Shown here: piece by piece, positions 3,241 to 50,650 of the stretch
Layout of the letters: each line of letters starts with the position of its first letter
Numbering within the stretch: position 1 is the first letter of the stretch
Origin: Ignavibacteriota bacterium
GTDB taxonomy: Bacteria; Bacteroidota; Ignavibacteria; UBA10030
Assembly (NCBI GenBank): GCA_963769605.1
Contig: CAVYML010000003.1
Location: 490,562 to 554,561 of the forward strand
Direction of reading: 5' to 3'
Length of the DNA: 64,000 nt
Translations under genes and position numbers: made by a program
The notes under the pieces: generated by a model
What the model was told of the DNA's origin: nothing
Seen by the model: the letters and a program-made list of their open reading frames with translations, nothing else
The model's database searches: none

Positions 3241-3699
3241 ATGAAAAACGTAATTATAGCGATTCTTTCGCTGTTTGCCGTCCTTTTGTCGGGATGCAAT
3301 ACTTTGACTCTCAAGCCCGGAGATTTTTCATGGCCGGTTGAATCCGTTCTTAAAGTGAACGAAAAAGGAATTATTCAAGATCCCCGTCACTGTTTCTCCG
3401 TGAACGTAAAAGCTCTTTCTTTTGCCGAGTTTCAGGATTCGACCGCCATTAAAACAACACTCCGGATTATTCGAGATGTGGAAGGATATTATTATATCAC
3501 TGCGCCGAAATTTAAAGACGTGTATGTTTTTGAAGATGCAGAGGGGAGCCTTCAATTGAAGAAATTCATTCCGGTAAAGGAACAGGGACTTGAATCGCCC
3601 GCTTTCAACCAACGAGTACCATATATTCAATTGATCAATGAGAATGATCCCGTGTTGCTGTTGAACAAAGAGGGCATACACGAAGGAGCAAAAAAATGA
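3241..3699 (+). CDS. Hypothetical lipoprotein.
   Basis: ATG at 3241 preceded by GGAGG. Signal peptide MKNVIIAILSLFAVLLSGCNT with an LSGC lipobox. Its stop overlaps the next gene's start (ATGA). Confidence 0.55.
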   Translation: MKNVIIAILSLFAVLLSGCNTLTLKPGDFSWPVESVLKVNEKGIIQDPRHCFSVNVKALSFAEFQDSTAIKTTLRIIRDVEGYYYITAPKFKDVYVFEDAEGSLQLKKFIPVKEQGLESPAFNQRVPYIQLINENDPVLLLNKEGIHEGAKK

Positions 3700-8104: not shown

Positions 8105-8255
8105 AGACTATGGAATATAGTGAGAATGTTGTGCGTTTACAAGATATTGCCTTTACGCCCTGCACTCGCTATATTAAATTAATTGGATTTTTCAATACAT
8201 ATGTTTCCAGAAACAGTAATCGGTTCCTCATCCAAATTGTCTTCATGAGGTTATA

Positions 8256-9848
8256 GTGGTTTCGCAGCAAGAGAAGAGGTCGGCTGTTGATAAAATCATC
8301 GAGCCGGATTCAAGCGGACAACTCCAGCTCATCCAATTGTTGCAGCGTCATCTTCTGGCTGCTCTGGATATAGAATCTGTTGTACGAAAAATCAAGGAAT
8401 TGTTTCCGCGATATTTCGGCGTTGACTCCGTCACTATTTTATTATACGATCCGACACATGATGTCCTTCTCGACAAGGGATTTGCGGGGGTTTTTCATGC
8501 CAACGAGAAATCGCTTTCCAATCCGAAATCCACGACGTTGGGTATTTTCAAAAAATCATTCCGTGAAGGCGTGCCGATTGCCGTAGAAGATTGTCTTTCT
8601 TCCGATCTTCTTCCGAAGCAATATTGCGTGGATCACAGTCTGCAATCGTTGATTGCAGTTCCTATCATTATGAAAGACCGGACCTTCGGCGTCTTAAGTC
8701 TCGAATATACATCGTACCAGCATCAATTTGTCAGGCCGGAAATTTCTTTCTATTTGGTTGTTGCGGAACTGGTTGCGCTCGTCCTTGAGAATATCCGGCA
8801 ATTGAACGAAAAAAAATTCTCCCGGGATTTTTTGGATGACACAGAAGACGGTTATTTTCGGCTTTTCGAAGCTGTGCCCATAGGTCTTTTCCGCGGCACT
8901 CCCGACGGCAAGCTTCTTCGAATCAATCCGGCATTGGTCCACATCCTGGGATATCCGGACAGGGAAACCTTGCTTGCCACGAACGCCTTTGACCTGTATG
9001 TTAAGAAGGAAGACAGGGAACGATGGAAAGCGGAAGTTCTCAAAGGTGCGCGCGAATACGATCTGGAAGTTCAGCTTCAGCGCTTAGATGGAACTATTAT
9101 TTGGGTGCGGCTTAGCTGCAATGCAATGCGCTCTGCCGACGGGACGATTCTCCATTACGATGGAGCCATAGCGGATGTTTCCGAAGAGAAGATTGCGGAC
9201 TCCCGCATCAAAGAAGCGTACCAGGAAAAGGAACTGCTTTTAAAAGAAATCCATCACCGGGTAAAGAACAATTTGCAAATTATCTCGAGCCTCTTGAACC
9301 TTCAATCGGATTACCTTCGCGATCCGTACGATGCTGAGTTGTTCAAACAAAGCCAGGCACGCGTCAAAGCGATGGCGCTGCTGCACGAAAAATTGTATCA
9401 ATCCCCCGATCTTGCACGAATCGATTTCGGCGCATACCTGCATTCGCTTGTGGCGCATTTGTTCCAATCGTATCAAACTTCGGCCGTTTCGATCGGGTAT
9501 TCCATCGATGCCGATAACGTCCACTTCGATATAGATACGGCAATTCCGTGCGGATTGATCGTCGGAGAGTTGGTTTCCAACTGTTTGAAACATGCATTCC
9601 GCGGGCGAACACAAGGGCATGTGTGGATTTCCGTCGGACATTTCGACGCCCGGACAATTCGTTTGAGCGTTGCCGATAACGGCATCGGTATGAAAGAAAC
9701 TACCGAGAATGTAAAGAGTGCAGCACTGGGTTTGGAGCTTGTAAAAACATTGTCCGATCAAATTTCTGCGGTACTCGATATTCAGCGTCAAGAAGGTACG
9801 CGGGTAACATTACTATTTAAAGGACGTATTAAGCGGGAAGGTACATAG
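8256..9848 (+). CDS. Sensor histidine kinase: GAF-PAS-HisKA_2-HATPase.
   Basis: GTG start. HisKA_2 H-box EIHHRVKNNLQIISSLLNLQ. ATPase G-box VADNGIGM. Confidence 0.8.
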   Translation: MVSQQEKRSAVDKIIEPDSSGQLQLIQLLQRHLLAALDIESVVRKIKELFPRYFGVDSVTILLYDPTHDVLLDKGFAGVFHANEKSLSNPKSTTLGIFKKSFREGVPIAVEDCLSSDLLPKQYCVDHSLQSLIAVPIIMKDRTFGVLSLEYTSYQHQFVRPEISFYLVVAELVALVLENIRQLNEKKFSRDFLDDTEDGYFRLFEAVPIGLFRGTPDGKLLRINPALVHILGYPDRETLLATNAFDLYVKKEDRERWKAEVLKGAREYDLEVQLQRLDGTIIWVRLSCNAMRSADGTILHYDGAIADVSEEKIADSRIKEAYQEKELLLKEIHHRVKNNLQIISSLLNLQSDYLRDPYDAELFKQSQARVKAMALLHEKLYQSPDLARIDFGAYLHSLVAHLFQSYQTSAVSIGYSIDADNVHFDIDTAIPCGLIVGELVSNCLKHAFRGRTQGHVWISVGHFDARTIRLSVADNGIGMKETTENVKSAALGLELVKTLSDQISAVLDIQRQEGTRVTLLFKGRIKREGT

Positions 9849-9851
9849 GAT

Positions 9852-12800
9852 ATGGCACATGCGAAAATTTTAATTGTCGAAGATGAAAGCATCGTGGCGC
9901 GCGACTTGCAGCGCCGGCTCATTCATTTGGGTTATGATGTCGTCGGAGCAGTTCCTACAGGAGACGAAGCAATAAAAAAAGCCTCCATCCTGCTGCCGGA
10001 TGTGGTTCTTATGGATGTTCGGCTCAAAGGCGATATCGACGGTATTGAAGCGGCAACGGAAATACGGTTTCGTTTTGGTATCCCGTCGATTTATCTGAGC
10101 GCCTATGCCGATAACGACACATTGAAGCGCGCCAGCGTCACCGAACCGTTCGGCTATATCTTGAAACCGTTCGAAGAGCGTGAACTGCACACGACAATCG
10201 AAATGGCATTGTACCGGAACGAGCTTGAACATAAAATCAAAGAGAATGAAACATGGTACGGCACGACGCTCCGCAGTCTCGGTGAGGCCGTCATTGCAAC
10301 GAATACAAATGGTGTTATAAAATTTATGAATGCCGCCGCCGAGTCTCTGACGGGATGGAGATTGAACGAAGCGCAGGGACAAGATCTCTTCAAGGTTTTT
10401 CAAACCTTAGAAGAGTCGGCAAAGGGGAAAATTATCAATCCGGTAGAGCAAATACTGAAGAATAAAGTAACGGCTGTTCTGAAGAATCATGCGGTTCTCG
10501 TTTCTCGCGACGGAAAAGAATTTCCGATTGACGAAAGCGCATCGCCGATTAAAGATGAGCGGGGAAGCACGGTCGGTATTGTCCTGGTGTTCCAGGATGT
10601 ATCGGAGCGCAAACGAACTCAGGAAGCGCTTCGATCATCGCAGGAATATGCGCAGAATATAATAGGCAGTTCGCTGGATATGATCGTTGCAGTGGATCTT
10701 GATCGCAATATTATCGAATTCAATAAGGCAGCGGAACTGACTTTCGGATATAAAAAGGAAGAAGTGCTCGGCAAGCATATCGATGTCCTCTATGCCGATC
10801 ATGAAATAAGCAAGTCCGTCAACAAAACGACCGACGTCAATGGACAGGCTATGATGGAGATTTTTAATCGGAGGAAAAACGGCGAAGTGTTTCCTGCTCT
10901 CCTTTCGTCGGCTGTTCTCAAGAATTCCCGCGGTGAAAAAATCGGATTTATGGGGGTCTCACGAGACATTACCGAACTGCGGAGAGCGGAAGTGACGTTA
11001 AAAACGGCGCAGGAATACGCTCAGAATATAGTCAATAGTTCACTCGATATGATCATTGCTGTCGACAAGGATCAACGTATTGTTGAATTCAATCGTGCGG
11101 CAGAAGAAACGTTCGGTTACATGGCAAATGAAATCCTCGGCAAGCCGATCGGCGTCTTGTATCACGATCAAACCGAAGCCGATCATATCCATGCGACGAC
11201 GATCAGCAATGGAAAATGCGTTCAAGAAGTCGTTAATCGCAGGAAAAATGGAGAAGTGTTCCGCAGCCTTCTTTCCGCTTCCGTATTAAAAAACGTGGAC
11301 GGCAAGGCAATCGGTATGATGGGCGTTTCGAGGGACATTACGGAAGTGAAACGGGCACAAGAAGCTCTGCGAGAAAGCGAGGAGCGTTACCGCGCGATTG
11401 TTGATCTTATGCCAGATCCGATCGCGATACATATCGGCGGCAAAATTACCTTTGTCAACTCTGCCGCCATTAAAGCTTTCGCGGCTGAATCTGCCGAGGA
11501 ATTGATCGGCAAGGAACTGGTCGACCTTGTCCACCCGGACTACCGGATCACGGTTGCCGAACTACTGCGGAAAATGCAGGAATATGAGAAAGTGCCGGTT
11601 GTTGAAGAAAAATTCCTGCGGTTAGACGGTACAATTCTTGAAGCCGAAGTTTCTGCAGTTCGGTTCGTCTGGCAAGGATCAACGGCAATCCAGGTTATGA
11701 TACGCGATCTTGCCGAACGAAAAAGGGCGGATCAGGCTATTCGTGCTTCCGAAACGAAATATCGTACGCTGTTCGAAAATGTTCTCGACGGTATATACCA
11801 GACCACTCCGGAAGGGGAAATTCTGACGACTAATCCTGCATTTGCGCAAATGCTTGGGTATGAGTCTGAAGCGGATCTCCTGTTGATTAACGTCGATGAA
11901 ATTTATGCCGACAGAACCGATCGAAAGGTATTTCTCGATACCCTTCAGAAAGAGGGACAGATGCTGAATGCCGAACTTACGATGAAGCGGAAGGACGGGA
12001 AATGCATCACAGTACTGGAAAACGCCCGTGTCGTCCGTAATAAATACGGAGAAGTATTGTTCTATGAAGGAACGATTCGAGATATCACTGCGTTGAAACT
12101 TGCACAGGTGGCATTAAAGAAGAGCGAAGAGCGTTTCCGGACATTTGCCAAATACAGCGTCGAATCGATTTGGGCTGTGGAATGCAATCCGCCTCTCGAT
12201 GTCGATTTACCAATCGAAGATGCCGTCAAGCAATTCGTTGAAACGGCATATGTCTCTGAATGCAACGATCTTCTCGCACGCAGTCATGGTTTCCGGTCTG
12301 CGGATGCAATGATCGGCACATTGCTTAAAAATATTGTAAAACATTCGGAAGTGCTCGGCCTTCCAATGATTAAAGGAATGATCGCATCCAGATATCAGGT
12401 GGAAAATTTGGAAACGCACGAATTAGATAAAGAGGGAAACGATAAATTTTATTTGAATAATATAGCAGGTATTTTCGAACGTGGGAAAGTTGTCCGCGTT
12501 TGGGGTTCACAGTTGGATATTACGGAACAAAAAAGAAACAAGCTGATGAGCAGTGTGGCGTACCGGATATCGCTGATTACGGAAACTTCTAATTCCTTAG
12601 AAGAGTTCTCCGAATCAGTTCACACTCTTCTGCGTGAAGTGATGCCTGCGAAAAATTTCTCGATCGCATTGGCAGATGCCAACGGGAACATAACATATCC
12701 GTATTATTTCGATGAACTTCATACGCAGGAACAAAGGTTGAAAATGAATACCAAGGCGTTGGAATACGTTCTTCGGAAAGGCCGATCACTTTTACTGACG

Positions 12801-13379
12801 CCGCAACTGCTTCTTCGCTATGATCGAGAAGGAAAGAAAGACTTCTCCGGTACGGAATCTCCTATGTGGCTTGGCGTACCGCTCAAGTTGGGTGAAAAAG
12901 TCTTTGGCGCTTTGGTCGTTCATAATTATTCCACAACGCCGAGTTATAATAATGCCCAGCGAATGATTTTGGAATTTATTGCCGGCCAAATCGTGCGATT
13001 TATTCATTACAACCGCTCTCTTGAAGAGTTAAGGGAGAAAGAAGAATGGTATGAAGGGTTTTTTGAAAATAATACTTTACCATCATTCATTGCCGACAGA
13101 GACGGTGCCCTCTTAAAATGCAATATGGCCTTTGAAGAAGCCATTCGTATTGAGGCAAAACAGAATGGAACCCCTTCGGCGGGGAAAACGCTCTTCGAAT
13201 CGGCAAAAGAACGAAAACAGTTTTTGGTGCGATTAGAACAAGAGAAAAAATTAGAAAATTACGAGATGGAACTCGGCGCCGTTATCGGCACATCGAAAAA
13301 AGAAAAAATAAATATCGTCGGGCATTTTAATAATGAAGGAAAGCTCGTAAGTTTCTATGGTGTTTTCTGCAACAAATAA
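9852..13379 (+). CDS. Response-regulator receiver fused to multiple PAS domains and a GAF domain, with no recognisable output domain.
   Basis: 1175 aa. N-terminal CheY-like REC (ILIVEDE...VLMDVRLKGDIDG...KP). PAS cores are repeated about six times (SxEYAQNIxxSSLDMIxAVD... twice). A GAF domain near aa 890-1040. Starts 4 nt after the kinase's stop. Confidence 0.8.
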   Translation: MAHAKILIVEDESIVARDLQRRLIHLGYDVVGAVPTGDEAIKKASILLPDVVLMDVRLKGDIDGIEAATEIRFRFGIPSIYLSAYADNDTLKRASVTEPFGYILKPFEERELHTTIEMALYRNELEHKIKENETWYGTTLRSLGEAVIATNTNGVIKFMNAAAESLTGWRLNEAQGQDLFKVFQTLEESAKGKIINPVEQILKNKVTAVLKNHAVLVSRDGKEFPIDESASPIKDERGSTVGIVLVFQDVSERKRTQEALRSSQEYAQNIIGSSLDMIVAVDLDRNIIEFNKAAELTFGYKKEEVLGKHIDVLYADHEISKSVNKTTDVNGQAMMEIFNRRKNGEVFPALLSSAVLKNSRGEKIGFMGVSRDITELRRAEVTLKTAQEYAQNIVNSSLDMIIAVDKDQRIVEFNRAAEETFGYMANEILGKPIGVLYHDQTEADHIHATTISNGKCVQEVVNRRKNGEVFRSLLSASVLKNVDGKAIGMMGVSRDITEVKRAQEALRESEERYRAIVDLMPDPIAIHIGGKITFVNSAAIKAFAAESAEELIGKELVDLVHPDYRITVAELLRKMQEYEKVPVVEEKFLRLDGTILEAEVSAVRFVWQGSTAIQVMIRDLAERKRADQAIRASETKYRTLFENVLDGIYQTTPEGEILTTNPAFAQMLGYESEADLLLINVDEIYADRTDRKVFLDTLQKEGQMLNAELTMKRKDGKCITVLENARVVRNKYGEVLFYEGTIRDITALKLAQVALKKSEERFRTFAKYSVESIWAVECNPPLDVDLPIEDAVKQFVETAYVSECNDLLARSHGFRSADAMIGTLLKNIVKHSEVLGLPMIKGMIASRYQVENLETHELDKEGNDKFYLNNIAGIFERGKVVRVWGSQLDITEQKRNKLMSSVAYRISLITETSNSLEEFSESVHTLLREVMPAKNFSIALADANGNITYPYYFDELHTQEQRLKMNTKALEYVLRKGRSLLLTPQLLLRYDREGKKDFSGTESPMWLGVPLKLGEKVFGALVVHNYSTTPSYNNAQRMILEFIAGQIVRFIHYNRSLEELREKEEWYEGFFENNTLPSFIADRDGALLKCNMAFEEAIRIEAKQNGTPSAGKTLFESAKERKQFLVRLEQEKKLENYEMELGAVIGTSKKEKINIVGHFNNEGKLVSFYGVFCNK

Positions 13380-13406: not shown

Positions 13407-14029
13407 ATGAACATCGATGATGTTAGAAAGCAGCGGTTTGATATCGCGACCATGCCCGTCGATCCGTTTAAGCAGTTCAGCATCTGGTTTGAGGATGTCC
13501 GAATTGCAAACATTCCTTATTCGAATGCAATGGCGATAGCCACGGCCAGCAGCCAGGGCCGCCCTTCGGCACGCATGGTTCTCCTAAAAGAATTCGATCA
13601 TAACGGTTTTGTTTTCTATACGAATTATGAAAGCCGAAAAGCTTCGGAATTGGAAGCAAACCCGTACGGATCGATTCTTTTTTTTGGGATGCGCTCGAGC
13701 GGCAGGTGCGCATCGAGGGAATAGTACACAGGACGACTCGCGAAGAATCCCGGCAGTATTTTGCAACACGTCCGCGCGAAAGTCAAATCGGCACATGGGT
13801 TTCCCGTCAAAGTTCCAACCTGCCGGACTGTTGCGACCTAGAAGATTCCGCCGCCGCTTTAGAGAAAAAATTTTCCGGTCAGGAAATCCAGTGTCCGGAT
13901 TTCTGGGGTGGATATCGGCTCGTTCCTGAAAGTTTTGAATTCTGGCAGGAAAGACCTTATCGTCTTCATGACAGAGTCTTGTATAAAAAAAATGGGGGAA
14001 AATGGATTGTGAGCCGGCTGTTTCCATGA
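13407..14029 (+). pseudogene. pdxH: pdxH (pyridoxamine 5'-phosphate oxidase) broken by a single-base frameshift in a T8 homopolymer.
   Basis: ORF 13407..13724 carries the PdxH N-terminal half (SILFFG...). ORF 13706..14029 continues in the +1 frame with the PdxH core RIEGIVHR...SQIGTWVSRQS...FWGGYRLVP..FEFWQERPYRLHDR. The two join at gatcgattcTTTTTTTTggg near 13683-13690. Removing one T gives LFFWDALERQVRIEG. Confidence 0.75.
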
Positions 14030-14042: not shown

Positions 14043-17000
14043 ATGAATTCTTCCGGAAAATATTTACGCGTCATTTCGCACGACGGCGGGGTTCGATCGT
14101 CCGGCGACTCCTTCGCACTGCCGATTCACGATTTTAAGGATATTACTGCGATGGCGGCACATGCGTGCGGTGTTTCGAGTGCTGTGCTTATGTTGAAAAC
14201 GGACGAACGATTATTCGTTGAGGCACGCTACCATGCCGATGCTTGTGATATCGATTCCGGCGACCCGCTCTTGTTGCAGACAATTCAGAACGAACATGTC
14301 TTCGCCGTCGAAGAAGTAACCGCGGTCAGTAGTCCTCACTCTACACCGTTTACTTTCGGCAGCAAACCTTTTCGATGTTATGCGGGCTCTTGCCTTCTTG
14401 ATTCTCAAAGGCGCATTCTCGGAATCCTTGCCGTCTTTGATATCGTACCGCATGCCTTTTCGGATGAACATAAACAAGTCTTGCTATGCTTTAGCCGTCT
14501 GGCTGCTGCCCAAACGGAATTGCACCGCACTATATCTCAGGCGCAGGGGATGCAGGAAGCACTCCTTTTGTATCGGGGGAAATTTCAAGCTTACGCCGAT
14601 TCTGCAGACAGCATTCTCTACGAAACGTCCGCAGAAGGGAAGATTACGGTTTGTAATTCTGCATGCATTCAATTGTTCGGTTATGAAGAGACTGAAATTT
14701 TAGATCATCCATATCTTGATTTTGTCCATCCTGATTTTCGTCAGACGGTGCAGCGCTTTTATAATGTCCAGTTTCTCCGCCAAACTCCGGCAACTTATTA
14801 TGAATTGCCCCTCATTGCCAAAGAGGGCAGCGTCCAATGGCTCGGGCAGAATGCCCGTTTAATCGAAGAGGATGGCAGGGTGAAGGGGTTTTCGATTACT
14901 GCACGCGATATCACGGAAAGAAAGAATTTCGAAACTGCCTTGCGGGAAGGGCAGCAGCGATATCAAACGATCGTTGAGAACGCTGCCGAAGGGATTTATA
15001 TGATCGATCCCGCGACCAAGCGAATTCTGGATGCCAATACGGCATTTGCCGGGATGCTCGATTACAGCTTGAATGAACTGCGCGGTTTGTCGATTTACGA
15101 TCTCGTACTCGATTCTCGGGAAAATATCGATCATCATTTGGAAGATTTTCGCCGGCTGCGCATGCCCATACGCAGTGAGCCGCAATATCGTACGCGCGGG
15201 GGCAGAGCTGTTGATGTTGAAGCGGCTGTCAGCGTTGTGTTCCTCGACGGCAAAGAAACATTGGTGACCATTGTCCATGATGTTACAGCCCGGAAAAAAA
15301 TTGAGGCAGAACTGCTTGCGAGCGAACAACGATTCCGCGATTTGTTTCGGAAGATTCCTTTGCCCGCATGGGTTTGCGATCTGGTGACTCTTAAGTTCGT
15401 AGAAGTGAACGACCAGGCGTTAAAACATTATGGCTATACGCGGGAAGAATTCCTGAATATGCGCATTACGGATATCCGGCCTCACGATGCAATGTCGCAC
15501 ATGAGAGTTGCTCTTGAATTGATTCAGGCGCGCCAATCGACGGAGATGGAGTCCCAGCATCGATGCAAAGATGGGCGCATTATTGAGGTAGAGACCTCCT
15601 GGCATGAATTTCATTTTAACGGCCGGAAAGCCCTGTTAGTCGTCGCCCGCGATATTACGGATATTAAGATATCGCAACAGGAAGCCCAACAGGCTAAAGA
15701 ATCGGCCGAAAAAGCGAATACTGCAAAGAGTGAATTCCTTTCCAATATGAGCCACGAAATCCGGACGCCTATGAACGGGATTTTAGGAACGATTCAACTG
15801 CTTTCCCAGTCGAATTTAACGGCTGAACAACGGGCGTATCTGGATACGATCAAAGTGAGCGGTGACGCACTCCTAAAAATCATCAACGCCATTCTTGATC
15901 TTTCAAGACTCGAATCCGGCGCCGTGGAAGCTGAAGAATCGAGTCTGATTTTTGATCCTTTCATCGAAGAGACGTACGAAATCGTCGCTCTGCAGGCTGA
16001 AGAGAAGAACCTTGAGCTTCATTATTGGATCGACGACGATGTACCGTCGGTGGTCCTGACCGATGCCACCCGACTTCGGCAAATACTTTTAAATTTAGTA
16101 AGCAATGCGGTCAAGTTCACAGAGCAAGGGGGAGTCCTCGTTACGGTAACCCGGGGCACGGAGAAGTCCGGTAAAATGGAACTGCTTTTTTCGATAAAGG
16201 ACTCTGGTATCGGGATTGCATCAGATCAAGTCGATCTGCTTTTCAAACCGTTTTCTCAGGTAGATTCGTCTCCATCCAGAAAATACGGCGGTGTTGGATT
16301 GGGGCTTGCATTGTGTACACGAAGCGTTGAACTGCTTGGCGGAAAAATCTGGCTTGAAAGTAAAAAGGGAACCGGTTCCACCTTCCGGTTCAGCATACGA
16401 ACAGGAAATGTGCTCGATACACCCGGTGCACCGTCGAAAGCGGATGAATTTCTCGGGCGGCGTATATTATTTGCCTCGAACAATCAATTTCAGATCCAGG
16501 TCATAAAGAGACTCATGGCATCGTGGGGATGCAAGGTCGACTGTGCCGAGACTGTTCATGATGTAATGGAATATGCAGCAAGAGAACCTATGTACGACTG
16601 TATTGTTCTCAATAATGTCCTGGAGGGCATTTCCGGAGAAGCCATTTTGAGAGATATCCAGAAAAACGAAAGACTCGCACATGCCAAAGCTATTCTTCTT
16701 GCTCCACATGGCAAGCATAATAACGATATCAGTGCAGAAGATACTATCGTATTGACCAAGCCGCTTCGTCATGCGGAGTTTTTCAATGCTCTGAAAAAAC
16801 ATTTTTCCAGTCCAGCAGAAAAGAGAGTTCAAATGGTTCAAACTCAAGAATCGCAGCAGTTCCAGACGGCTGTAACGGATCGCAGGCTGCTTGTCGCAGA
16901 AGACAATATCATCAATCAGAAACTGATTTCGCGTATTTTAAAATCGCTCGGTTATGCATCGGAAATCGCCAATAACGGCAAAGACGCGCTTTCCAAAGTA

Positions 17001-17261
17001 CAGACCGAACGCTATGATATCGTTTTTATGGATGTCCAGATGCCGGAGATGGACGGCTACGAAGCATCCCGGCAAATCGTGCATACGATACCGAAAGATC
17101 GAAGGCCTGTCATTATTGCGATGACCGCGCACGCGCTTCAGGGAGACCGCGAACGATGTCTGGAGGCCGGGATGGATGATTATCTGAGCAAACCGATTCT
17201 TATTAACGATGTGCGGCGCTGCCTTGAGAAATGGATCGAAATCTTGAATGGAGAAAAGTGA
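14043..17261 (+). CDS. Hybrid sensor kinase: GAF, three PAS, HisKA, HATPase, a degenerate receiver and a canonical receiver.
   Basis: 1072 aa. H-box [17 protein letters not shown]-boxes, a pseudo-receiver reading CIVLNNVLEG (Asp to Asn), then the canonical REC DIVFMDVQMPEMDG. Confidence 0.85.
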   Translation: MNSSGKYLRVISHDGGVRSSGDSFALPIHDFKDITAMAAHACGVSSAVLMLKTDERLFVEARYHADACDIDSGDPLLLQTIQNEHVFAVEEVTAVSSPHSTPFTFGSKPFRCYAGSCLLDSQRRILGILAVFDIVPHAFSDEHKQVLLCFSRLAAAQTELHRTISQAQGMQEALLLYRGKFQAYADSADSILYETSAEGKITVCNSACIQLFGYEETEILDHPYLDFVHPDFRQTVQRFYNVQFLRQTPATYYELPLIAKEGSVQWLGQNARLIEEDGRVKGFSITARDITERKNFETALREGQQRYQTIVENAAEGIYMIDPATKRILDANTAFAGMLDYSLNELRGLSIYDLVLDSRENIDHHLEDFRRLRMPIRSEPQYRTRGGRAVDVEAAVSVVFLDGKETLVTIVHDVTARKKIEAELLASEQRFRDLFRKIPLPAWVCDLVTLKFVEVNDQALKHYGYTREEFLNMRITDIRPHDAMSHMRVALELIQARQSTEMESQHRCKDGRIIEVETSWHEFHFNGRKALLVVARDITDIKISQQEAQQAKESAEKANTAKSEFLSNMSHEIRTPMNGILGTIQLLSQSNLTAEQRAYLDTIKVSGDALLKIINAILDLSRLESGAVEAEESSLIFDPFIEETYEIVALQAEEKNLELHYWIDDDVPSVVLTDATRLRQILLNLVSNAVKFTEQGGVLVTVTRGTEKSGKMELLFSIKDSGIGIASDQVDLLFKPFSQVDSSPSRKYGGVGLGLALCTRSVELLGGKIWLESKKGTGSTFRFSIRTGNVLDTPGAPSKADEFLGRRILFASNNQFQIQVIKRLMASWGCKVDCAETVHDVMEYAAREPMYDCIVLNNVLEGISGEAILRDIQKNERLAHAKAILLAPHGKHNNDISAEDTIVLTKPLRHAEFFNALKKHFSSPAEKRVQMVQTQESQQFQTAVTDRRLLVAEDNIINQKLISRILKSLGYASEIANNGKDALSKVQTERYDIVFMDVQMPEMDGYEASRQIVHTIPKDRRPVIIAMTAHALQGDRERCLEAGMDDYLSKPILINDVRRCLEKWIEILNGEK

Positions 17262-17281
17262 AAAGTACGGAGGCGTAAAAT

Positions 17282-17638
17282 ATGACTACGAAAGAAAGTC
17301 TTTATCTGCGTTTGGATGAACTTGCAAGCGAACTTGACCATGATTTTACGGTAGAAATTTCCGAAATGTACGTTAAAGATGCTCCATTACAAATAAAGGC
17401 AATTGCGGAGGCAATGAGGGGAAAAAATTCCGATGCTTTAATTCAGTCTGCTCACAAATTAAAAGGAAGCAGTCTCAATATCGGAGCTGTCAGCATAGGA
17501 TCGATGTGCCTCCGGCTCGAACAGTTGGGAAAATCCGGAATGCCTTTTGAAGAAGCCGGCGATATTCAGGATCTCAAAACAGAATTTGATATTGTCAAGA
17601 CTCTGTTAGAAGCATATATAAAAAAAGAAGGATCATAA
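17282..17638 (+). CDS. Stand-alone HPt histidine phosphotransfer protein.
   Basis: 118 aa with the HKLKGSSLNIGA HPt motif. Immediately downstream of the hybrid kinase. Confidence 0.7.
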   Translation: MTTKESLYLRLDELASELDHDFTVEISEMYVKDAPLQIKAIAEAMRGKNSDALIQSAHKLKGSSLNIGAVSIGSMCLRLEQLGKSGMPFEEAGDIQDLKTEFDIVKTLLEAYIKKEGS

Positions 17639-18002
17639 AACCGCTGCTATCTGCTTTTTGGAGCGGCCTTTCTTCGATTTATTTCAAGCTCATTCCAATC
17701 CGGTCACAAGAGCGGAACACGGAATTACATTATCAGGAAATCCTTTAACCGATCTCCGAGTGAATTGCTGCCGATTCTTAATTTGCGGTAATTGGCTGTT
17801 GTTATTACTCATTCTTCTTTTTCAAACCCTCTTTTTCTTGCTAATCAGGTTTATTTTTTCTACTTTATACACATTGTGAACCCACTTATATACATAGCAT
17901 CTCATCGCAACCCTTCCTGCCATGGAGTCATCTATCGGTCCTGTTGATACCAATCGGTAATTGAGTTTTCGTTTTTTTTATTGCAACAGGTGAAAAGTTT
18001 CT

Positions 18003-21000
18003 GTGAAGCTAAGAAGCACAGAATATATATATTTTTCGGCGAAAAGAACCGCATTATTTTGTGCCGTTGTGTTTTTGCTGACGGTGCTTTATGCTCGCAA
18101 ATTGCCGGCGGATGGTTTTCCTCTCATCGGAGAGAACCAGCCGTTCATGAACGATACAACTTCTGTGGAATCGCCTTTCTCCAACGCGTATTCCGCAAGA
18201 CATGCACGCGCAGCACAGGATCGCGCCGCCTATTTCAATGCTTTGCGTTCTTCGCAAAATGCATCTTTTGCCCGCTATGACAGTTTACTGCTGGTACATC
18301 GGGACTCCTCTGCAAGAGTTGCGCAATTCAAATATGTTCGAAAAGATAATCCGGTTGTCGACGGTTCCTATCACAAAAATCTCCCATTGTTCCTTAACGA
18401 ACCGCTGGCCGTTTATTATAAGGATGAATTAGACTCAACGCGATGGGTCTATCGAATCCGCCGCATCGTTGACGATATCGATACGCGTATTCCGCTTGAT
18501 ATTCCTCTGGAAGAATACACCGATCTGCGGATGAAGAAAGCAATCCGGAAGAACTGGGAATCGATCTTACAGGCTTCACAATCCGCACAGCAAAAACAAG
18601 ATGCTCTGGCAAACTTGTTCAGTTCCGTGACAAACATTGAAATTCCCATTCCACAAAACCCCCTTTTTAGTATCTTTGGAAAAAATTATGTGCGATTCCA
18701 AATTACCGGAGGAATCGATATCCATGCGGCATTTCAAAATGTCAAAAGCGATCTCTATACGACGACTGTCAATCAATCAACGAGTACTCCCGAGTTCTCT
18801 CAACAACTGCAGTTCACTTTAAACGGTGAAGTAGGCGATAAGCTGAAAGTGAGCGCGGACTGGAATACGCAGCGTACCTTCGATTACGAAAACCAGATGC
18901 ACATAAATTATAGAGGCTATGATGACGATATTATTCAAAGCGTCGAAGCCGGCAACGTTTCACTGCAAACAAATTCATCTTTTATATCGAGCAGTCAAGC
19001 CTTGTTCGGCATTAAAATGGGGATGCAGTTCGGACCTTTGAAATTGACTGCTATTGCCAGCCAGAAGAAAGGACAGATCAAATCACTCTCGGTCAACAGC
19101 GGCTCCTCTTCCACGACGTTCAATATACGCCCCAGCCAGTATTCTCAAAATTACTATTTTATTGATACGAGTTATATCGGCCTCTATGGCGATTGGTATC
19201 TCGGGAAAAACCACGTCACGAACCATCCGGAAAAAACGGTGCAATATATTGAAGTATGGGTTTCGCGTATAGGGGCGGTCTCTACAAAAGAAAAAAAAGT
19301 CATCGCGTTTATGAGCCAGGACTCTGTCCTGCAATATCAGAAGAATCGTCCTCCAGCCTCGATGAATTACAGCGGGACCGGGAATGGGGAAATGGAAGCC
19401 GGAGCTTTTGTGCCGCTGATCAATGGAACGGATTATACGATCAATCAGTATATCGGAGTCATATCTCTGAAAACAGCTTTACAAACGAATCAGGCAATAG
19501 CGGTAGCGTATACCGCCGGGCCGCTGGGCGGGCCAACCACAACGATAGGTAATTCCGGTTCTCAGACGACCGGCGATTCAAGCTGGCTCGTTATGAAGCT
19601 TGTCCGGCCGCTAAATCTGGCTTCTAATCCATTCTTGAAAACCGGATGGAAGATGATGCTCAAAAGCCATTATGCAATCGGCGGCGGCGGTATCAGCGCG
19701 AACAATTTTTCCATGAAGATTCAATATCAACCATCGGGAGAGACCGCTGTCGATAATGTTCTTTCGCAAAATATCGGTGTTATGACCATGCTCGGCATGG
19801 ATCGTTATAACGGTCCAAATAATGACAACGGGCCCGATAAAATTTTCGACTACATCCCCGACTTTACCGTCGACTCAGTCCGCGGGGAAATTATCTTCCC
19901 GACCGTTCAGCCTTTTGATAGCGCCTCAATAGCATATTTTTTAGCTTCAACAAATCCCACATTGCCCTCAACGCAACAACTCACGTCCGCGCAAATAACA
20001 GCAGCCGCAGATTCTTTAAATTTCAATAATCTCTACGACACGACGGCTTCGGCAGCCGATGTAGATCCGCGGAGCCGCTATATTATTACCGGAACGGCTA
20101 CATCAAGCGTTCAATCGCAATACAGCGTCGGAACGAATATCGTCGAGGGAAGCGTCGTTGTGACGGTCGACGGCCAGCCGGCGGTCTTAAATACGGACTA
20201 TACCGTAGATTATGTCTCCGGGACAATTACAATTAGAAATCCGTCTTTTCTTACAGCGGGACGGAATGTTCAGATAAAATATGAAGCAAACGACCTCTTC
20301 CAGCTTGCATCGAAAACACTTCTTGGTGTACGCGGAGAAATTGCCATCAACCGCAGCACGGCGCTTGGCTTTACCGTTATGAACTTGAACGAACAGTCGC
20401 TGACCGATAAGGTGCGTCTGGGGGATGAACCGACCAATAATACGATTTATGGCTTGGATGCAAGCACGAGCTTTGATGCGCCTTTTTTAACAAAGATATT
20501 GAACTGGCTTCCGGGTATCCATACCATCGAAAAATCAAGAGTCTCACTGAAGGGAGAATACGCATACATGTCTCCCGACCCGAATACCCGGACAAGTCCT
20601 GTCCCTGAAGACGGCGGAAAGAGCGTGGCCTATATAGACGATTTTGAAGGATCTCTTCAAACAATGCCGATCAGTGTCGCGTATACTTCGTGGAAGGAAG
20701 CCAGCCCGCCATATTATATTTCAACGATAGATACAGCTTATGCTATAGACGGAATTACAAAAACCGTCTCTACAGACCCGGTGAATACGATTATGGCAGA
20801 TACGGATAAGATGGAATATAAAGCTCATACGACATGGTTCACCATAGCCTCAAGCGATGTTCAGATCACAGATATTTGGGGATCAAGAAGGCAGGCCGTA
20901 TCCGGACAAAGCCAGGTCACGGTTTTAAATATGTATTTCGATCCCGCCCAGAGAGGAACATATAATTATTCTCAAAATTTGTTTACCAAATTATTTCTGA

Positions 21001-24000
21001 ATCCCACAAAAGCCTGGGGTGGAGCACAGCTTGCTCTCGGCACATCAACAACGAACCTCGCCGATCAAAATATAAATTATATTCAGATGTGGGTAAAAAT
21101 TGTCGCTGGACAACCTACAGTAAAACTTAACATTGATCTCGGCTATATCAGTGAAAAGTCTTATCCTTTAGGCGGGAATACTTTGATGACTGAAGACGGT
21201 TTGGATAATCATGGAATTCCGACCGGTCTTATGCATCAGGATGAGGATGCAGGTATCGACGAATTAAGCGACGATCAGGAGAAACATAAATTTTCGAACT
21301 TCCGCAATGCTTATGCTGGCACACGACTTGCAGGTGCATTTGATAATGATCCATCGGGCGACGATTGGAAGCAGCCGCCAACGAGTATTAACGGGTCGCT
21401 TGACACGGGGGCGACTGCAATATCATTCGATGGATGCAATGGTGTCGAGGGCAATTATCAAAGCGAACTCGGATCGCGTTATCCCGATACGGAAGATTTA
21501 AACGGCGATGGAATTATGAATCCGCTGAATTCGTACTTTGAATATGAATTACCGCTGGACACAAACAATGCCGTCTTCGCGCAATATGTTACGGGAGTGG
21601 GAAATAACGGCTGGCATCAAGTCAGTATCCCTCTCGAATATTTTACGCGCCAGATCGGGAGCCCGACGCTTACCGATATCCAGGACATGCGTATCTGGGT
21701 GACCGGAGCAAGCGGCAAAGTTCTGTTCCGGATTGCGAATTTTAATCTTGTCGGCAACCAATGGAGAACCGAAATTCCGAACGATCCCGTGCTGCAAGTA
21801 AGTGCGGTGAACTATCAAGACAATCCGGATTACACACCCCCTGTTCCGCTTATTGTAGATCCGACCATTACAACTCAGACGGTCTATGAGAATGAGCAAT
21901 CTCTCGATCTTATCATAAGCAATCTCCAGCATGGTGATTCCACCAGAGCGGTAAAACTATTCAGTGCGCATCCGATTAATCTCTTGAATTATCATACGAT
22001 GAAAATGTTTCTTCACGGCGAAACACGAAACGATGTTTCGAAAGGGTACAAAGCTTTTGTGTATAAAGATTCGGCGCATTATGATGTGCGGATTGCCTTC
22101 CGGTTCGGGACAGATTCTTCCAATTATTACGAGTACACCGCTCCGCTAAAACCCACTTGGACAAACAACGATATGATTATCCATTTTGCCGACCTATCTT
22201 CCTTAAAGGCATTACGCGACAGTACGGAGGATGTGCATGGCCCTGTACCAAACGGCCTTCCGGGCGCCACTTATTGGATTAGAGGATTTCCGACATTGAC
22301 TGCCATCCAATATATGGCGATAGAAGTCAAGGATCATGATACGACAAAGAACATAAATGGCGAGGTATGGGTAGATGAACTACGTCTGACGGATGTCGAT
22401 AATACGCCGGGCTCCGCTTATAAACTCGATGCAAATATCAAGCTTGCAGATGTAGCCACTATCGGTTTTTCGCTTTCTCATCTCGGTCCAACCTTCCATT
22501 CGCTGGAGGACCAATTCGGCAACCATACAGACATGCTTTCATGGAGTCTTTCTTCGACGATCAACTTTGAAAAGTTCTTGCCTGAGAGCTGGGCCGGCAC
22601 ACAGCTTACCATGTCATATATGCATTCTGAAAATTATCAAAAGCCGCAGTATGTCCCGGGCTCGGATGTTTTAGTGGAACAGGCTGCGCAGCAGGTTGCC
22701 GCAGCGATTGCAAGGGGAGATACTACTGTGACCGTCAAACCGGACGATATTCGTCTTGCATCACAGACGCTGACCGTGACGGACAGTTACGCTCTTCCTT
22801 CACTTCGGCTCAATATTCCGCTGGATACATGGCTTGTCACAAAGACGATCAATCAGATGATATTCGGTTATTCATACAGCTCTACGTTTCAGCGTTCGCC
22901 GACGGTCGAATGGTCGAAATCCTGGACATGGGAAGCGCATGTATCGTATAATATTCAATTTTCTCCTGCGAATTCTTTTAAACCGTTCCACTGGCTGGGG
23001 AAATTTTTCCTTACAAGTATCTGGCAGGATCTTACGATTTATTTTACACCGAGGAACATATCTGTGACGACCTCCTTCACCCGGAGCCAATCGCAGAGCC
23101 AGACTCGATATTCGGCCACCGACAACCCTCTTGTATATAATCTTACAGCATCGCGGTCTTTAAATTTCACATGGCAATGGTTTGAAGGCAAATATCTCGA
23201 CCTGGGCACGAATTATCAGGTCGCAATCGGCAGTACTCTTTATGATCTTGAAACGGATCGATACGGGAACCAGCGATCCTTCTACGATATCCTGAAAGAT
23301 ATGATCTTAAGTGATCGTCTTATCGACTTCGGCGTCGATCAAAGTTATTCGCAGGGCATAACATGGAATCCTCAAATCAAAATTCCCAATACTACGTGGC
23401 TGGGAAAGTTCATCCGTCCATCTCTGCAGTATTCAACTCAGGTACAGCTGGGCGGACAATATCGGCTCCGGCGCTCTGGGGAAAAGTGCGGCCACGAACA
23501 GTTCATTTCGTTTTTCGACAGATATCGACCTGCACTCCATTAGTTCGGCTCTCTGGTCGTCGGATGGATCGTCATCGCCGCTGCCGAATGATACGAGCCG
23601 AAGCCGCGGAATCAAGAAGGCGTCGCAGCAGCTCTCAGCGTTGACAAAATTTCTTTTCAAAGACTTGCTCCTCGACTTTGACAGATTGACGTTCAGTTTT
23701 TCGAATGGCAACAATATCCAAAACACAGAGGTCACGGGTGGAGAAGGGTTCGCAAATCTTTTTGCGCGTGCTCCGTTTATCCAATCTTCCCTGCCGGAAA
23801 ACGGTCCATCGCTTCTCTATCAACTCGGTGTGTCTTCAGATCCTAATGGAAGAGTCGTGCTGGGTACGAAAAATTCTTTCCCGTTTATTACCGGATATAC
23901 CATTCCCGGATTGCGTGCAGACACCGGATTGCCGACGGATATGTTTTCACAAAATAATATGATCACGGTAGGCACCGGCAGGACTCTCTGGGAAGGAGCC

Positions 24001-24947
24001 CGGTCGACTTGAACTGGAATTATAGCTGGTCTTACAGCACAAATCAAACAATGTCGACCGATGAATTCGGACGGATACAAGATACGACAAACAGGACGAT
24101 AAGCGGAAGCATGCAGCGTTCGTTCCTTGCATTTCCTAATGTGTTTATCTTTAAAATATTTAATACGAGCATCGATAATGTGGATAAAAAATATGAAGCG
24201 TTAAAAAGCGATACGACACTCACAAACGATAAAAGACTTTCAATGGCTTTCCAGCAGGGATTCGAAGCGTTTCCATTTCTGACACAACTCTTCGGGTCGA
24301 TGCTCCCGCGAGTGAATTGGTCGTTTCACTGGAGCGGTCTGGAAAAGTTTTCTTTATTTAAGTCGTTTGCATCCAGTATTTCGCTGGAACATGCATATAC
24401 TTCGAGTTACAGTGAACAATGGAATGTCATGACATCGGGTGAAGAGGTCGTACAAAGTCAAAGCATCGCTTATGCTTTTTCTCCGCTCATCGGAGTAAAT
24501 ATCGAATTTAAAGGATTGGGGAAGGGTACTCTAAGTGCAAACTGCCGATATAACACCGGCACTACATTCGATCTTACACCTGCAAGTCTTAATGCGACAG
24601 AAACCGATCAGTCAAGCGTTACAGCGACCTTATCGTACCGCCAGCAGGGATTTAATCTTCCGTTGTTCGGAATATCTCTTTCGAATGATGTGGAGGGAAG
24701 CATGTCGTATTCCGTGAACAATAATTCAACGATTTTGTACAGCTTCGATCCTACATATACAAGCACTCCAGGGACCGGTTCGATCATGACGACTCTTCAA
24801 CCGCGAATCAAATATACACTCAGCTCGCGCATTACCGCCTCAATCTATTATCGGTATATGCGCACTGCACCGACATCGAGCGGGTCGAATGTGACAGGCA
24901 GTACGGCAAATGAAGGCGGGCTTGACGTGCATATCGCCATACAGTAA
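18003..24947 (+). CDS. sprA: Giant SprA/Sov-like T9SS outer-membrane translocon homolog (about 2300 codons). The frame is interrupted: 18003..23543 in frame 0, about 23362..24012 in frame +1, 24009..24947 back in frame 0.
   Basis: GTG start and signal-peptide-like N-terminus. Extremely long, beta-rich, N/S/T/Y/G-rich sequence typical of SprA. A PorX-like gene lies 10 nt downstream. The frame switches were verified by hand translation; see the SprA finding. Confidence 0.65.
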
Positions 24948-24992
24948 GAAGCGGGTTTGCTTCTCTTTTCTTTAATCGATACTTTAGAAATT

Positions 24993-26555
24993 ATGAAAAA
25001 GACCAAAAGAATATTATGGGTGGATGACGAAATCGATATGCTCCGCCCGCACCTTCGAATTCTGGAACAAAAAGGATACGAAGTCGAGACGGCGACTAAT
25101 GGCGACGACGCAATAATGCTCGTAAGAACGAAAAAATTTGATCTTGTCTTTCTCGATGAAATGATGCCCGGAATCGGAGGTCTGCAGACACTCGGTGCTT
25201 TGAAGGATCTGGAACCGGCGCTGCCGGTTGTCATGGTAACGAAGAATGAGGCGGAGAGTCTGATGGAAGAAGCGATAGGCGGGAAAATCACGGATTACCT
25301 GACAAAACCGGTCAATCCGAGTCAGATTCTTCTTGCATGCAAGAAAATATTCGAATCGAAAGAGATCGGCGACGCTCATGTCTCTCGAAATTATGTTGAA
25401 GAATTTCAGACCATCAACGATGTATTGTACGATCCCTTAAATCAGGAAGAATGGATCGAAATCTATAAAAAAATGACGGAATGGGACAGGGAACTCGATG
25501 CACATTCAGATCTTGGACTGCGGCAGACGCTGCTCGATCAGCGGCGGGAGGCAAATGCAAAATTTGCAAAATATGTCGAGAGTTCCTACAGGAAATGGCT
25601 TGAACAGCCGAATCGTGCGATTGCTCTCTCGCCCGATGTTGTCGAGCGATATGTGTTTCCGCAAATAAACGATTCCTGTTCGCTCTTTTTTATCGTCGTG
25701 GATTGTCTTCGGTACGACCAGTGGCTGGTGATGGAACAGATGCTGTCGGAATATTTTACGTTCGAGAAAAATTTTTATTTCAGTATCTTGCCTACGGCAA
25801 CACCGTATTCCCGCAATGCTATTTTCAGCGGGCTGTTTCCGTCAGAACTTCAAAAACGTTTTCCAGAGATATGGCAGGAGGGGGAAGACGATGAAAGCAG
25901 CCGAAACCGATATGAACATGAATTGTTGAACCGGCTTCTTGAACGAAAATTCACAAAGACCAAAACGGAAGCAAGATATGTAAAGATCTTAGACGCAGAA
26001 TTTGGAAAACAAATTGAATCGAATATTCTTTCGTATCTTCCAAACCGGTTAACCGCTATAGTCGTCAATTTTATCGATATGCTGGCGCATGGACGATCCG
26101 ATTCTCCCATTCTTAAGGAAATTGCTCCGGATGAAGCTGCCTATCGCACGCTCACGAGATCATGGTTTCAACATTCATCTCTCTTCGGTATGTTAAAAAC
26201 GCTGAGCCGGCAAAAAAATGTTAAGATCATCCTTACCACGGATCATGGAAGCGTGCGCTGCCTGCGCGGTGCAAAAGTTCTCGGGGACCGCGAAGCCTCC
26301 GCGAATTTGCGGTTCAAGTACGGACGCAATTTGAAGGTGGAAGAAAAGAATGCCTTCATTATGAAAAATCCCTCAGAGTATAACCTTCCAAAGGACAGCG
26401 TAACGACAAACTACATTATCGCTAAAGAAGATTATTATTTCGTTTATCCGACGGATTATCATAAGTACTTGAATTATTACCGCGATAGTTTTCAGCACGG
26501 AGGAATATCTCTTGAAGAGATGATTCTGCCGATTGTCAAGATGGAACCAAAATGA
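24993..26555 (+). CDS. porX: PorX-like response regulator: CheY-like receiver plus PglZ (alkaline-phosphatase superfamily) domain.
   Basis: MKKTKRILWVDDEIDML...DLVFLDEMMPGIGG...TKP receiver. Then PglZ motifs FIVVDCLRYDQW and ILTTDHGS. An alternative upstream start at 24957 is possible. Confidence 0.8.
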   Translation: MKKTKRILWVDDEIDMLRPHLRILEQKGYEVETATNGDDAIMLVRTKKFDLVFLDEMMPGIGGLQTLGALKDLEPALPVVMVTKNEAESLMEEAIGGKITDYLTKPVNPSQILLACKKIFESKEIGDAHVSRNYVEEFQTINDVLYDPLNQEEWIEIYKKMTEWDRELDAHSDLGLRQTLLDQRREANAKFAKYVESSYRKWLEQPNRAIALSPDVVERYVFPQINDSCSLFFIVVDCLRYDQWLVMEQMLSEYFTFEKNFYFSILPTATPYSRNAIFSGLFPSELQKRFPEIWQEGEDDESSRNRYEHELLNRLLERKFTKTKTEARYVKILDAEFGKQIESNILSYLPNRLTAIVVNFIDMLAHGRSDSPILKEIAPDEAAYRTLTRSWFQHSSLFGMLKTLSRQKNVKIILTTDHGSVRCLRGAKVLGDREASANLRFKYGRNLKVEEKNAFIMKNPSEYNLPKDSVTTNYIIAKEDYYFVYPTDYHKYLNYYRDSFQHGGISLEEMILPIVKMEPK

Positions 26556-27001: not shown

Positions 27002-27664
27002 GTGGCGATATTAGGCATTGAAACGTCTACAGCAGTTTGTTCGGCGGGCATGATCGAAGAGAATGGAGGCGTGAAAGAGCTTGCACTTATCGAATCGCAC
27101 ATCCATTCGGAAAAACTGTTGAATCTGATTGAGGAAGTTTGCAGCGGCTCATTGAAGCTGCTGCAAGGCGTGGCTGTGTCTATCGGGCCGGGTTCCTTTA
27201 CTGGTCTGCGGATCGGATTGAGTACGGCAAAAGGATTGTGTTACGGATTGGGCATCCCTCTTTTAACGGTTCCAACATTTAAAGCAATTGCCCGATGTGC
27301 TGCACGGAAGAAGGAATGCGATTCCCTTTTGATTTGTCTGGATGCCAAGCAAGGCGAGTATTATGCGGCATCCTGGCGTAAAGAAGCGCAAGGAAGAGAG
27401 CAAGAATCCGCCGTGCAGATTCTTACAATGCCGGACGTACTACGTTTGATTCCCGGATCTGCTTTGCTTGTGACCGATTGTCCGGATGCAATGCAGAAGA
27501 TCGATGCCGTTCTTCAAATTGAAGATGTGCATCAATTCTGCAGCGGAGCAATAGTTGCCGAGCTTGGAAGGGAAATGCTGGAGAATGGTCAACAGGCCGA
27601 TGTGGCGTCGTGTGAACCGCTTTATTTAAAAGATTTTATCGTTCGGACACGGCTGAAAACATAA
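27002..27664 (+). CDS. tsaB: tRNA t6A37 biosynthesis protein TsaB (YeaZ).
   Basis: GTG start. ILGIETST...GPGSFTGLRIG matches the Kae1/TsaB-family N-terminus. Confidence 0.8.
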   Translation: MAILGIETSTAVCSAGMIEENGGVKELALIESHIHSEKLLNLIEEVCSGSLKLLQGVAVSIGPGSFTGLRIGLSTAKGLCYGLGIPLLTVPTFKAIARCAARKKECDSLLICLDAKQGEYYAASWRKEAQGREQESAVQILTMPDVLRLIPGSALLVTDCPDAMQKIDAVLQIEDVHQFCSGAIVAELGREMLENGQQADVASCEPLYLKDFIVRTRLKT

Positions 27665-37679: not shown

Positions 37680-37751
37680 GCTGAAGTAGCTCAGTGGTAG
37701 AGCAGCGGTTTCGTAAACCGCAGGTCGTGGGTTCAACTCCCACCTTCAGCT
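37680..37751 (+). tRNA. tRNA-Thr (anticodon CGT).
   Basis: GCTGAAG-TA-GCTCAGTGGTAGAGC-A-GCGGT-TTCGTAA-ACCGC-AGGTC-GTGGGTTCAACTCCCAC-CTTCAGC-T. A clean cloverleaf. CCA is not encoded. Confidence 0.85.
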
Positions 37752-38488
37752 CAAAGACCCTCCATTTCTCTCTGTTTTCAATGCTTGCCTTTTTTTTCAA
37801 AGACCCACCATTTTGGATCTACAAAGTGCCAAGTTAGTGCCATCTTTAGTGCCTAAGGTACGCCTCCAAATTAAATGAGTTGATTCATATTCCCTTCAAA
37901 AATTGGATTTGTCTACTATTATTTTTTACGGATGAATTAGAAATAAGACACAAAGTTTCCACCAGGTGGAGTAAGAAATTTGATGCCCTCATCTTTATAC
38001 GGCAATTCAAACAAAATGAATTCGAAAAGCAAAAGAAAATAAAAAGAATATTATTCTCCGATTTCATCATACAGTTTCATGAATACTCTTCAAGGAAGTT
38101 GTTTTAATTTATGGATTCAGTTCTTATTGGCAATTCTAAAGCTCCTCAGACATTCCACGAGACAGCAGAAATCAATTCTCATTTGCTGCCTCAACACTGC
38201 GCAAAGAAATTAATATTCTTTCCCATATGTTTAAGATCAATTAACACCATCTGCCGGATTGCATAACTCTCCAAACTTTTGTATAATATGTCTGCAATTA
38301 TGTTCATTCAAAATCTTCCGACAATAAACAATGGTTCTATTCATATTGCCTTTTTGTAAATTGCATAGCATCGTAAGATTAAGAATGAACAAAAAGGCAA
38401 TAAAAACAATGGTGAACGATAGAATATAATTTGGCACTATTGAATAAATAGTTGAGTGGTAAAATGCCGAATTCAGAAAGAAATCAAT

Positions 38489-38575
38489 GGAGAGCTGGCT
38501 GAGCGGTCGAAAGCGGCGGTCTTGAAAACCGTTGTAGCCTTATGGCTACCGGGGGTTCGAATCCCTCGCTCTCCG
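38489..38575 (+). tRNA. tRNA-Ser (anticodon TGA), class II with a long variable arm.
   Basis: GGAGAGC acceptor, anticodon loop CTTGAAA, variable arm TGTAGCCTTATGGCTACCG, T-arm GGGGGTTCGAATCCC. Confidence 0.85.
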
Positions 38576-38876
38576 CTCGACTTCACTCTATCAAAAAAGC
38601 GATGGAGCTTTATCGAGCAGGCAAAACTTTGTTGCATGAAAAAAATGTAAATCTTTTCGCTAAGGTAAGACGAGTCTTCCCCAAAAGCACAAAACTTGTG
38701 GTTATAACAATGATTTTGGCGATGGAAGATCATATTGGATTTATAAGTTTTTTTCTCTGAAATTCAATTAAAAGGTTTACGCGAATACTCAGCGCATAGC
38801 TGAAGATCTAAAACCTTACTTCGTCCCTTATCCAAGATACTGGAAGCCTGAGCATGTTATTCTGTGTCTTGCTATT

Positions 38877-38990
38877 CACAGGGTGATGCCTTTTCGCAGG
38901 GTCGGTGTAAACCCGCCAAGCGGATCGCTATGCGTGCCGGGGGGAAAGTAGTACACGGGTCAAGGCGAACCGCGGCTGCAGGAAGTGTGG
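38877..38990 (+). ncRNA. GC-rich, probably structured element (candidate small ncRNA or 5' leader/riboswitch) in an otherwise AT-rich gap. Identity unresolved.
   Basis: An approximately 115-nt island (cacagggtgatgcc...gtgccggggggaaag...ggtcaaggcgaaccgcggctgcaggaagtgtgg) with several short internal stems. It lies about 160 nt upstream of the 39150 gene on the same strand. No match to RNase P, tmRNA or SRP topology. Confidence 0.25.
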
Positions 38991-39149
38991 AATTTTAAAT
39001 ATCAACGACACTATAAGCATTTTTCAGAATAACTATTACTATATTTATACGTTTATATATAATGCGTTGAGCCGTAACATCGAAACGCAATGAAAAAATC
39101 TGCTGCAGTTCGACTATGCTCACTGCAGTTCATTGTAGAGGAAGTATTT

Positions 39150-46434: not shown

Positions 46435-46699
46435 ATGGTCGCGGATGCTGTAGCTTCGAAAAGATCTAATAATGTTTTCGGGATAGTTTCAGATGTTCCG
46501 AGATCATCCGCGACGATCCGTCGCGGCTACAGTGCGATCAATCCTATTTGGTGAAAATACAATTCTAAGTCAGTGTGATCAGCCCTCAAATTCCGGTTTT
46601 TTATCGGAATTCAATATATATCAGGCAAATCCTCCTCTTTCCCGCATTCTAAAGACTGGCATATCGTGTGTAAAATATACGGAAAGGCAGTAGAGAAAA
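46416..46699 (+). repeat. Copy 1 of the duplicated non-coding leader upstream of the paralogous hybrid kinases.
   Basis: About 80-85% identical to 50651..50982. Shared blocks: attgtcaaat, ggtcgcggatg(c/t)tgtagcttcgaaaa, caatcctatttggtgaaaatacaattctaa, taaagaNctggca. Confidence 0.65.
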
Positions 46700-50542: not shown

Positions 50543-50553
50543 TTTTTAAAAGC

Positions 50554-50584: not shown

Positions 50585-50650
50585 TCCATCTTGTGTCCGC
50601 GACGTGCCTGCCTGCTGACGCAGTCGCGCAGGCAGGCCTGTCTCGAAAAT

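Follow-up and report, generated by a model that had tools for sequence, protein, structure and literature searches.

The T9SS outer-membrane translocon gene of this Ignavibacteriota bacterium, sprA/sov, is interrupted in the window (the whole 64,000-nucleotide stretch of DNA that was analysed) by two frame changes that are very probably one-base consensus errors of a long-read assembly. With one base removed and one base added, the gene at 18003-24947 reads as a typical SprA/Sov gene, encoding an ordinary, intact, single-frame translocon of 2314 aa. Two independent assemblies of the same strain, identical to the window apart from single-base indels, carry this gene without either frame change, and homologous genes in related genomes run through both sites in one frame. 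The “two compensating frameshifts” of the preliminary description are almost certainly an assembly artefact rather than a biological feature, judging from these sequence comparisons. Table 1 gives the positions of the features.

Table 1. Features of the window (all on the + strand) and the evidence for each
Feature	Position	Strand	Description	Evidence
sprA/sov	18003..24947	+	T9SS outer-membrane translocon; 2314 codons after two one-base corrections	TIGR04189 matches
Frame change 1 (site 1)	23441..23442	+	GG for G (tcaGGtac vs tcaGtac); +1 insertion 5' of GTAC	Alignments, same-strain contigs
TAG closing the frame-0 ORF	23541..23543	+	Out of frame in the intact gene; brought into frame by the extra G 100 nt before it	
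SprA middle segment	23443..24001	+	Residues about 1813-2000; in frame +1 only through the indels	Colinear homologues, dN/dS
Frame change 2 (site 2)	24002..24003	+	cccGG for cccGGG; one G lost from a short run (-1)	Same-strain contigs, relatives
porX-like gene	24957..26555	+	T9SS response regulator (receiver + PglZ), intact, immediately 3' of sprA	NF052313 T9SS_RR_PorX, 716 bits (cut-off 300)
Third indel	13678..13685	+	T8 vs T9; breaks a 207-aa pyridoxamine-phosphate oxidase gene (13407-14029)	Four same-strain assemblies
tRNA-Thr(CGT)	37680-37752	+		
tRNA-Ser(TGA)	38489-38576	+		Region conserved in L002 as well

The sprA gene and its reading frames

As deposited, the gene is in three overlapping open pieces. 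Frame 0 is open from a GTG at 18003 to the TAG at 23541-23543; the +1 frame is open between 23362 and a TGA at 24010-24012; and frame 0 reopens at 23958, has start candidates from 24009 on, and ends at 24947. This frame structure had been given in the preliminary description, together with the statement that a single protein of about 2300 aa requires correction of two shifts, one +1 and one -1. Both points hold, and the corrected translation is 2314 aa long.

What protein does the gene encode? The preliminary description had called it SprA-like and had proposed aligning the three ORFs to TIGR04189. The first piece matches this profile at positions 375-1785 (927.8 bits) and the third at positions 2055-2308 (67.7 bits), and the length of the middle piece roughly equals the stretch of the profile left unmatched between them. 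By itself, the middle ORF has no NCBIfam or Pfam match because conservation of the profile is weak there; homology is nonetheless present. PF14349 (SprA_N) is also found, with 172 bits. The intact 2314-aa SprA of the same strain scores 1004.6 bits against TIGR04189 (cut-off 200) in one stretch that spans both sites (residues 472-2301, profile 375-2307 of 2319), and in a phmmer search of the PDB it matches 6h3i_A and 6h3j_A in two stretches, with E = 2.4e-113. Identification as a SprA-like T9SS translocon is thus confirmed by the TIGR04189, PF14349 and PDB 6H3I matches. With the SprA/Sov translocons, for which F. johnsoniae SprA (PDB 6H3I/6H3J) is the solved example, the protein shares the TIGR04189 match over most of the profile and the SprA_N domain, and its gene adjoins one for a PorX-type regulator. 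The window protein, which belongs to an Ignavibacteriota-type MAG lineage, is only distantly similar in sequence to the solved F. johnsoniae protein. Once both indels are removed, nothing about the gene is unusual with respect to the known SprA/Sov architecture.

Assemblies of the same strain

Looking for exact copies of the proteins encoded by the neighbouring TsaE and histidine-kinase genes led to ENA ERZ25039466 contig_111691 (L006/L011). Over 27.2 kb (window 4045-31240), this contig differs from the window by 0 substitutions and by four indels of 1 bp, SprA sites 1 and 2 among them, and its SprA is called as one uninterrupted gene of 2314 aa. A second assembly, NCBI GCA_049288255.1 (L015, JBAQHJ010000733.1), covers 2.5 kb (window 22212-24740), again with 0 substitutions and differing by an indel at the same two sites; its protein (P0025, MFZ1979651.1) reads “...QYSTQYSWADN...EGARVDLNWNYSW...” in one frame. 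This protein was taken, with four others (P0026-P0029), from the 90%-identity cluster of the 2314-aa SprA. A Logan fragment (P0026) and an ENA fragment (P0029) in the cluster are both continuous across site 2, and the window's own annotated pieces are P0027 (1846 aa, ending ...RYRPALH) and P0028 (278 aa).

The two sites can be placed to the base. At site 1, a single G is present in both same-strain contigs (L006/L011 and L015) and in the intact relatives. At site 2, CCCGGG is present in L001, L006/L011 and L015; L002, L003, L004 and L005 also have six bases there, the forms outside the window being CCCGGG, CGCGGA or CCCGAA, and the window has five. A tblastn search with the merged protein sees the window switch frame at 23440/23441 and at 24006/24009. 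The sites are 561 nt apart and of opposite sign, and when a G is removed at 23441 and a G is added at 24002, the window translation becomes identical to the 2314-aa SprA of L006. The preliminary description had put the first shift somewhere within 23362-23540, an overlap without a homopolymer. The overlap and its lack of a homopolymer stand, and the position narrows to exactly 23441/23442, where G has become GG beside GTAC. The second shift had been placed at acttgaactgg near 24008; it actually lies a few bases upstream, in the ccc-gg run at 23999-24003.

A third indel separates the window from its strain, with T8 at 13678-13685 in the window and T9 in four other same-strain assemblies (L011, L012, L013 and L014). 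The fourth difference from contig_111691 is an extra C in that contig, right after GTAC at window 4265-4268 (around position 225 of L011). It cuts the gene for a coiled-coil membrane protein into parts of 192 and 254 aa, and the corresponding window ORF, 3648-4988 (+), is intact, so each assembly carries its own errors. The tally on the window's side is 3 indels and 0 substitutions in 27 kb. A difference made up of indels only is the profile of long-read consensus error, not of divergence, and we infer that the bases of the window are consensus errors instead of a private variant. Given this density of indels, two hits of opposite sign in sprA, at 6.9 kb the region's largest gene, are unremarkable, although two errors only 561 nt apart at about 3 indels per 27 kb remain a mild coincidence. 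Among the options that the preliminary description had listed, two assembly indels is the one that agrees with the same-strain assemblies, in which the gene is intact and neither indel is present. The single continuous frame that it had named as refuting evidence is likewise there in independent data, the evidence being assemblies and not read pile-ups. Its headline, which has two frameshifts being “read through”, is not supported, both being absent from the same strain.

Could the two indels be a recent and real inactivation? A clone may have gained the +1 insertion in sprA, truncating the protein at the TAG at 23541, and then have picked up a neutral -1 deletion downstream; the driver could be, for example, selection for losing a surface-exposed T9SS pore that is used by phages. 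Such losses have a precedent in Flavobacterium, where T9SS or gliding genes are lost under phage pressure. Both indels do stand in the deposited sequence, and the source annotation does divide the gene into P0027 and P0028, but two independent assemblies of the same strain, at 0 substitutions, have neither indel. Two real indels within 561 nt, unaccompanied in 27 kb by any of the far commoner substitutions, would be a very unlikely outcome of mutation, and the window contains a further indel of the typical homopolymer type. Moreover, the stop at 23541 lies between the two sites, so the second indel cannot rescue the first, and their compensation would be a coincidence. Constraint on the gene is not relaxed either, as its dN/dS values (below) indicate. 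Recent inactivation is thus improbable. Its full form, in which both indels are real and a clonal sub-lineage otherwise identical to sprA-intact strains has just lost its T9SS translocon, is slightly more so; if true, it would show T9SS loss caught in situ, e.g., through phage escape or cheating on secreted enzymes. An older lesion is excluded. The pseudogenised translocon that the preliminary description had offered as one possibility fails on the absence of the lesion from ERZ25039466 contig_111691 and GCA_049288255.1, and on a dN/dS of 0.13-0.18.

Relatives and selection

The preliminary description had also suggested comparing the same locus in related genomes. With the hand-merged C-terminal 602 aa as the query, homologues align continuously over both junctions (P0001 at 76% and P0002 at 84% identity), and many further homologues have 45-50% identity over 100% of the query. 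By tblastn, three relatives run through both sites in a single frame at 74-79% amino-acid identity: L003 (from JGI), L004 (the GTDB MAG “Ignavibacteriota bacterium MFD01476.bin.2.1”) and L005 (the MAG “Ignavibacteriae bacterium fen_1254”). The homologues are therefore continuous, and not naturally split at these points. In the JGI metagenome contigs that were scanned, neither version of site 1 was found.

In frame +1, the middle segment shares 76-84% identity with its single-frame counterpart in close relatives. Its dN/dS, computed by the Nei-Gojobori method for the window against L002-L005, is 0.13-0.18, and the values upstream (0.13-0.21) and downstream (0.16-0.17) are similar. The segment has evolved within a functional protein, under the same purifying selection as its flanks, and this equality excludes both an old pseudogene and an out-of-frame replacement. 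An ancestral frameshift common to the lineages of the window and L002 was considered as well, and was ruled out by the downstream dN/dS of about 0.16 and by a different net shift in L002.

These comparisons bear on two further explanations, each of which is extremely improbable. The first is programmed recoding, in which full-length SprA would be produced by ribosomes that change frame by +1 near 23441 and by -1 near 24002. In its favor, the frame +1 segment is intact and conserved, and L002 too has gained a G at this CAG|GTAC position. However, no slippery sequence, stimulatory stop or rare codon was found when these were looked for at 23435-23445 and 23995-24010; the same strain encodes the protein without a shift, as do homologues at 74-79% identity; and the indel patterns of L001 and L002 differ from each other and are not compensated. 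The second, that SprA is naturally split at these points or that a barrel segment was replaced by out-of-frame sequence, has in its favor that gene callers predict separate ORFs, both for the window and for several ENA contigs, yet it founders on a middle segment that is 76-84% identical to the single-frame segment of relatives with a dN/dS of 0.13-0.18, and on split points that are not the same from contig to contig. The barrel replacement had been raised in the preliminary description and is contradicted by the colinearity of the middle segment with its homologues and by a dN/dS like that of the flanks.

Probable origin of the frame changes

Consensus error being the preferred reading, how would the two errors have arisen? 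The source of the window would be a metagenome contig of an Ignavibacteriota/Bacteroidota organism, assembled from long reads (most likely Nanopore reads, in a Flye/Medaka-type pipeline), whose consensus retains residual one-base indels. Two such errors in the 6.9-kb sprA, being of opposite sign, would make the frame leave and then return, imitating compensating frameshifts. The SprA pieces P0027 and P0028 are annotated on a contig of 933,552 bp, present in NCBI and ENA, and in samples of this kind such a length points to long-read assembly. The sister ENA contigs have Flye-style names, and one relative is a Microflora Danica MAG. The Microflora Danica pipeline used Nanopore reads assembled with Flye (--meta --nano-hq) and one round of Medaka, without short-read polishing (PMC12313526). 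For the contig of the window and the ERZ assemblies, a Nanopore platform is proposed on these grounds.

The pattern of differences is that of a long-read artefact: indels only, in short runs or error-prone contexts, with more elsewhere on the contig. Residual errors in Nanopore-only metagenome assemblies likewise include indels, from homopolymer miscounts or associated with base modification, and those of the window lie in a T8/T9 run, in a GGG run and, in one case, beside GTAC. The sister contigs have errors of their own, which break SprA, PorX and TsaB-like genes. For example, SprA is in four pieces in L001 and in three in L002, and PorX is in two pieces in L002. The points at which SprA is split vary among contigs, which indicates random errors rather than a conserved gene architecture. 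In a Pfam check, other suspicious ORF junctions in the first 37 kb of the window resembled normal boundaries between neighbouring genes (ClpB, LptF/LptG, histidine kinases and a TonB receptor).

One feature could look biological. The extra base at 23441 recurs, being present in the window, in L002 and, in a different form, in L001. In L002, another CAGTAC that lies 12 nt upstream has acquired a G in the same way, without a compensating change. One-base errors in these contigs cluster inside or right beside the tetranucleotide GTAC. At 23441, the window has a G inserted ahead of GTAC, and L001 has an A changed to G at the same site. L002 has an A inserted after GTAC at window position 25716 (25712-25716), which splits PorX. 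L008 has an A deleted and an A changed to C at AGTAC, at window position 27221 (27221-27225), and L011 has a C inserted after GTAC at window position 4268. Of the same-strain events, 4 of 10 are at GTAC, and of all events 7 of about 15, whereas positions in or beside GTAC amount to only 1.4%. The binomial p is ~4e-6 in the closest case for which it was calculated (4 of 9 events) and ~3e-10 for 7 of 14.

Modification-induced errors in Nanopore sequencing are documented (PMC11610603, PMC11610573). It is a reasonable inference that a GTAC-specific DNA modification exists in this Ignavibacteriota lineage and disturbs basecalling, and the first error, at 23441, would then have been favored by modification at GTAC. 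Compared with the documented errors, the link to GTAC here is statistical and drawn from a small number of events, and the majority of GTAC sites are correct. A universal conversion of CAGTAC to CAGGTAC is ruled out, as the window has 22 unaffected CAGTAC and 3 CAGGTAC. Because those 22 CAGTAC sites are unaffected, the cause of the first error is only partly explained.

Implications for annotation

What are the consequences of two such errors? First, the public record divides the T9SS translocon into proteins of 1846 aa and 278 aa, and automated T9SS-completeness or pseudogene calls would wrongly score the secretion system as defective, both for the MAG of the window and for the sister Nanopore contigs in which SprA is in three or four pieces. 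Second, the errors adjacent to GTAC hint at a modification in this lineage that lowers Nanopore consensus accuracy. Apart from this hint, the biological significance of the frame changes would be nil, the SprA of the organism being, to all appearances, ordinary and intact, and the lesson is one of mis-annotation.

Genomic context

Upstream of sprA, at 14043-17638, are genes for a 1072-aa PAS-rich hybrid histidine kinase and a separate 118-aa Hpt protein. The hybrid kinase, the Hpt protein, sprA and PorX may form a local T9SS regulatory module. In the region just around the start of sprA (window 17524-19460), L001 (ERZ25039473:contig_118342) is ~6% different from the window over its first 2 kb, which comprise intergenic sequence and the SprA N-terminus, and has 5 substitutions in its remaining 10 kb. 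Either L001 represents a recombinant strain, or its consensus is a chimera of two strains that occur together.

Sensor-kinase genes are unusually dense in the window. Four consecutive genes for PAS-rich hybrid histidine kinases, of 1283, 1026, 1601 and 1119 codons, lie at 46694-63057 (+), each preceded by a spacer of ~420-430 nt, and two further genes of this kind lie at 8220-13379. Both tRNA genes listed in Table 1 are associated with an otherwise ORF-poor stretch at 37818-39078.
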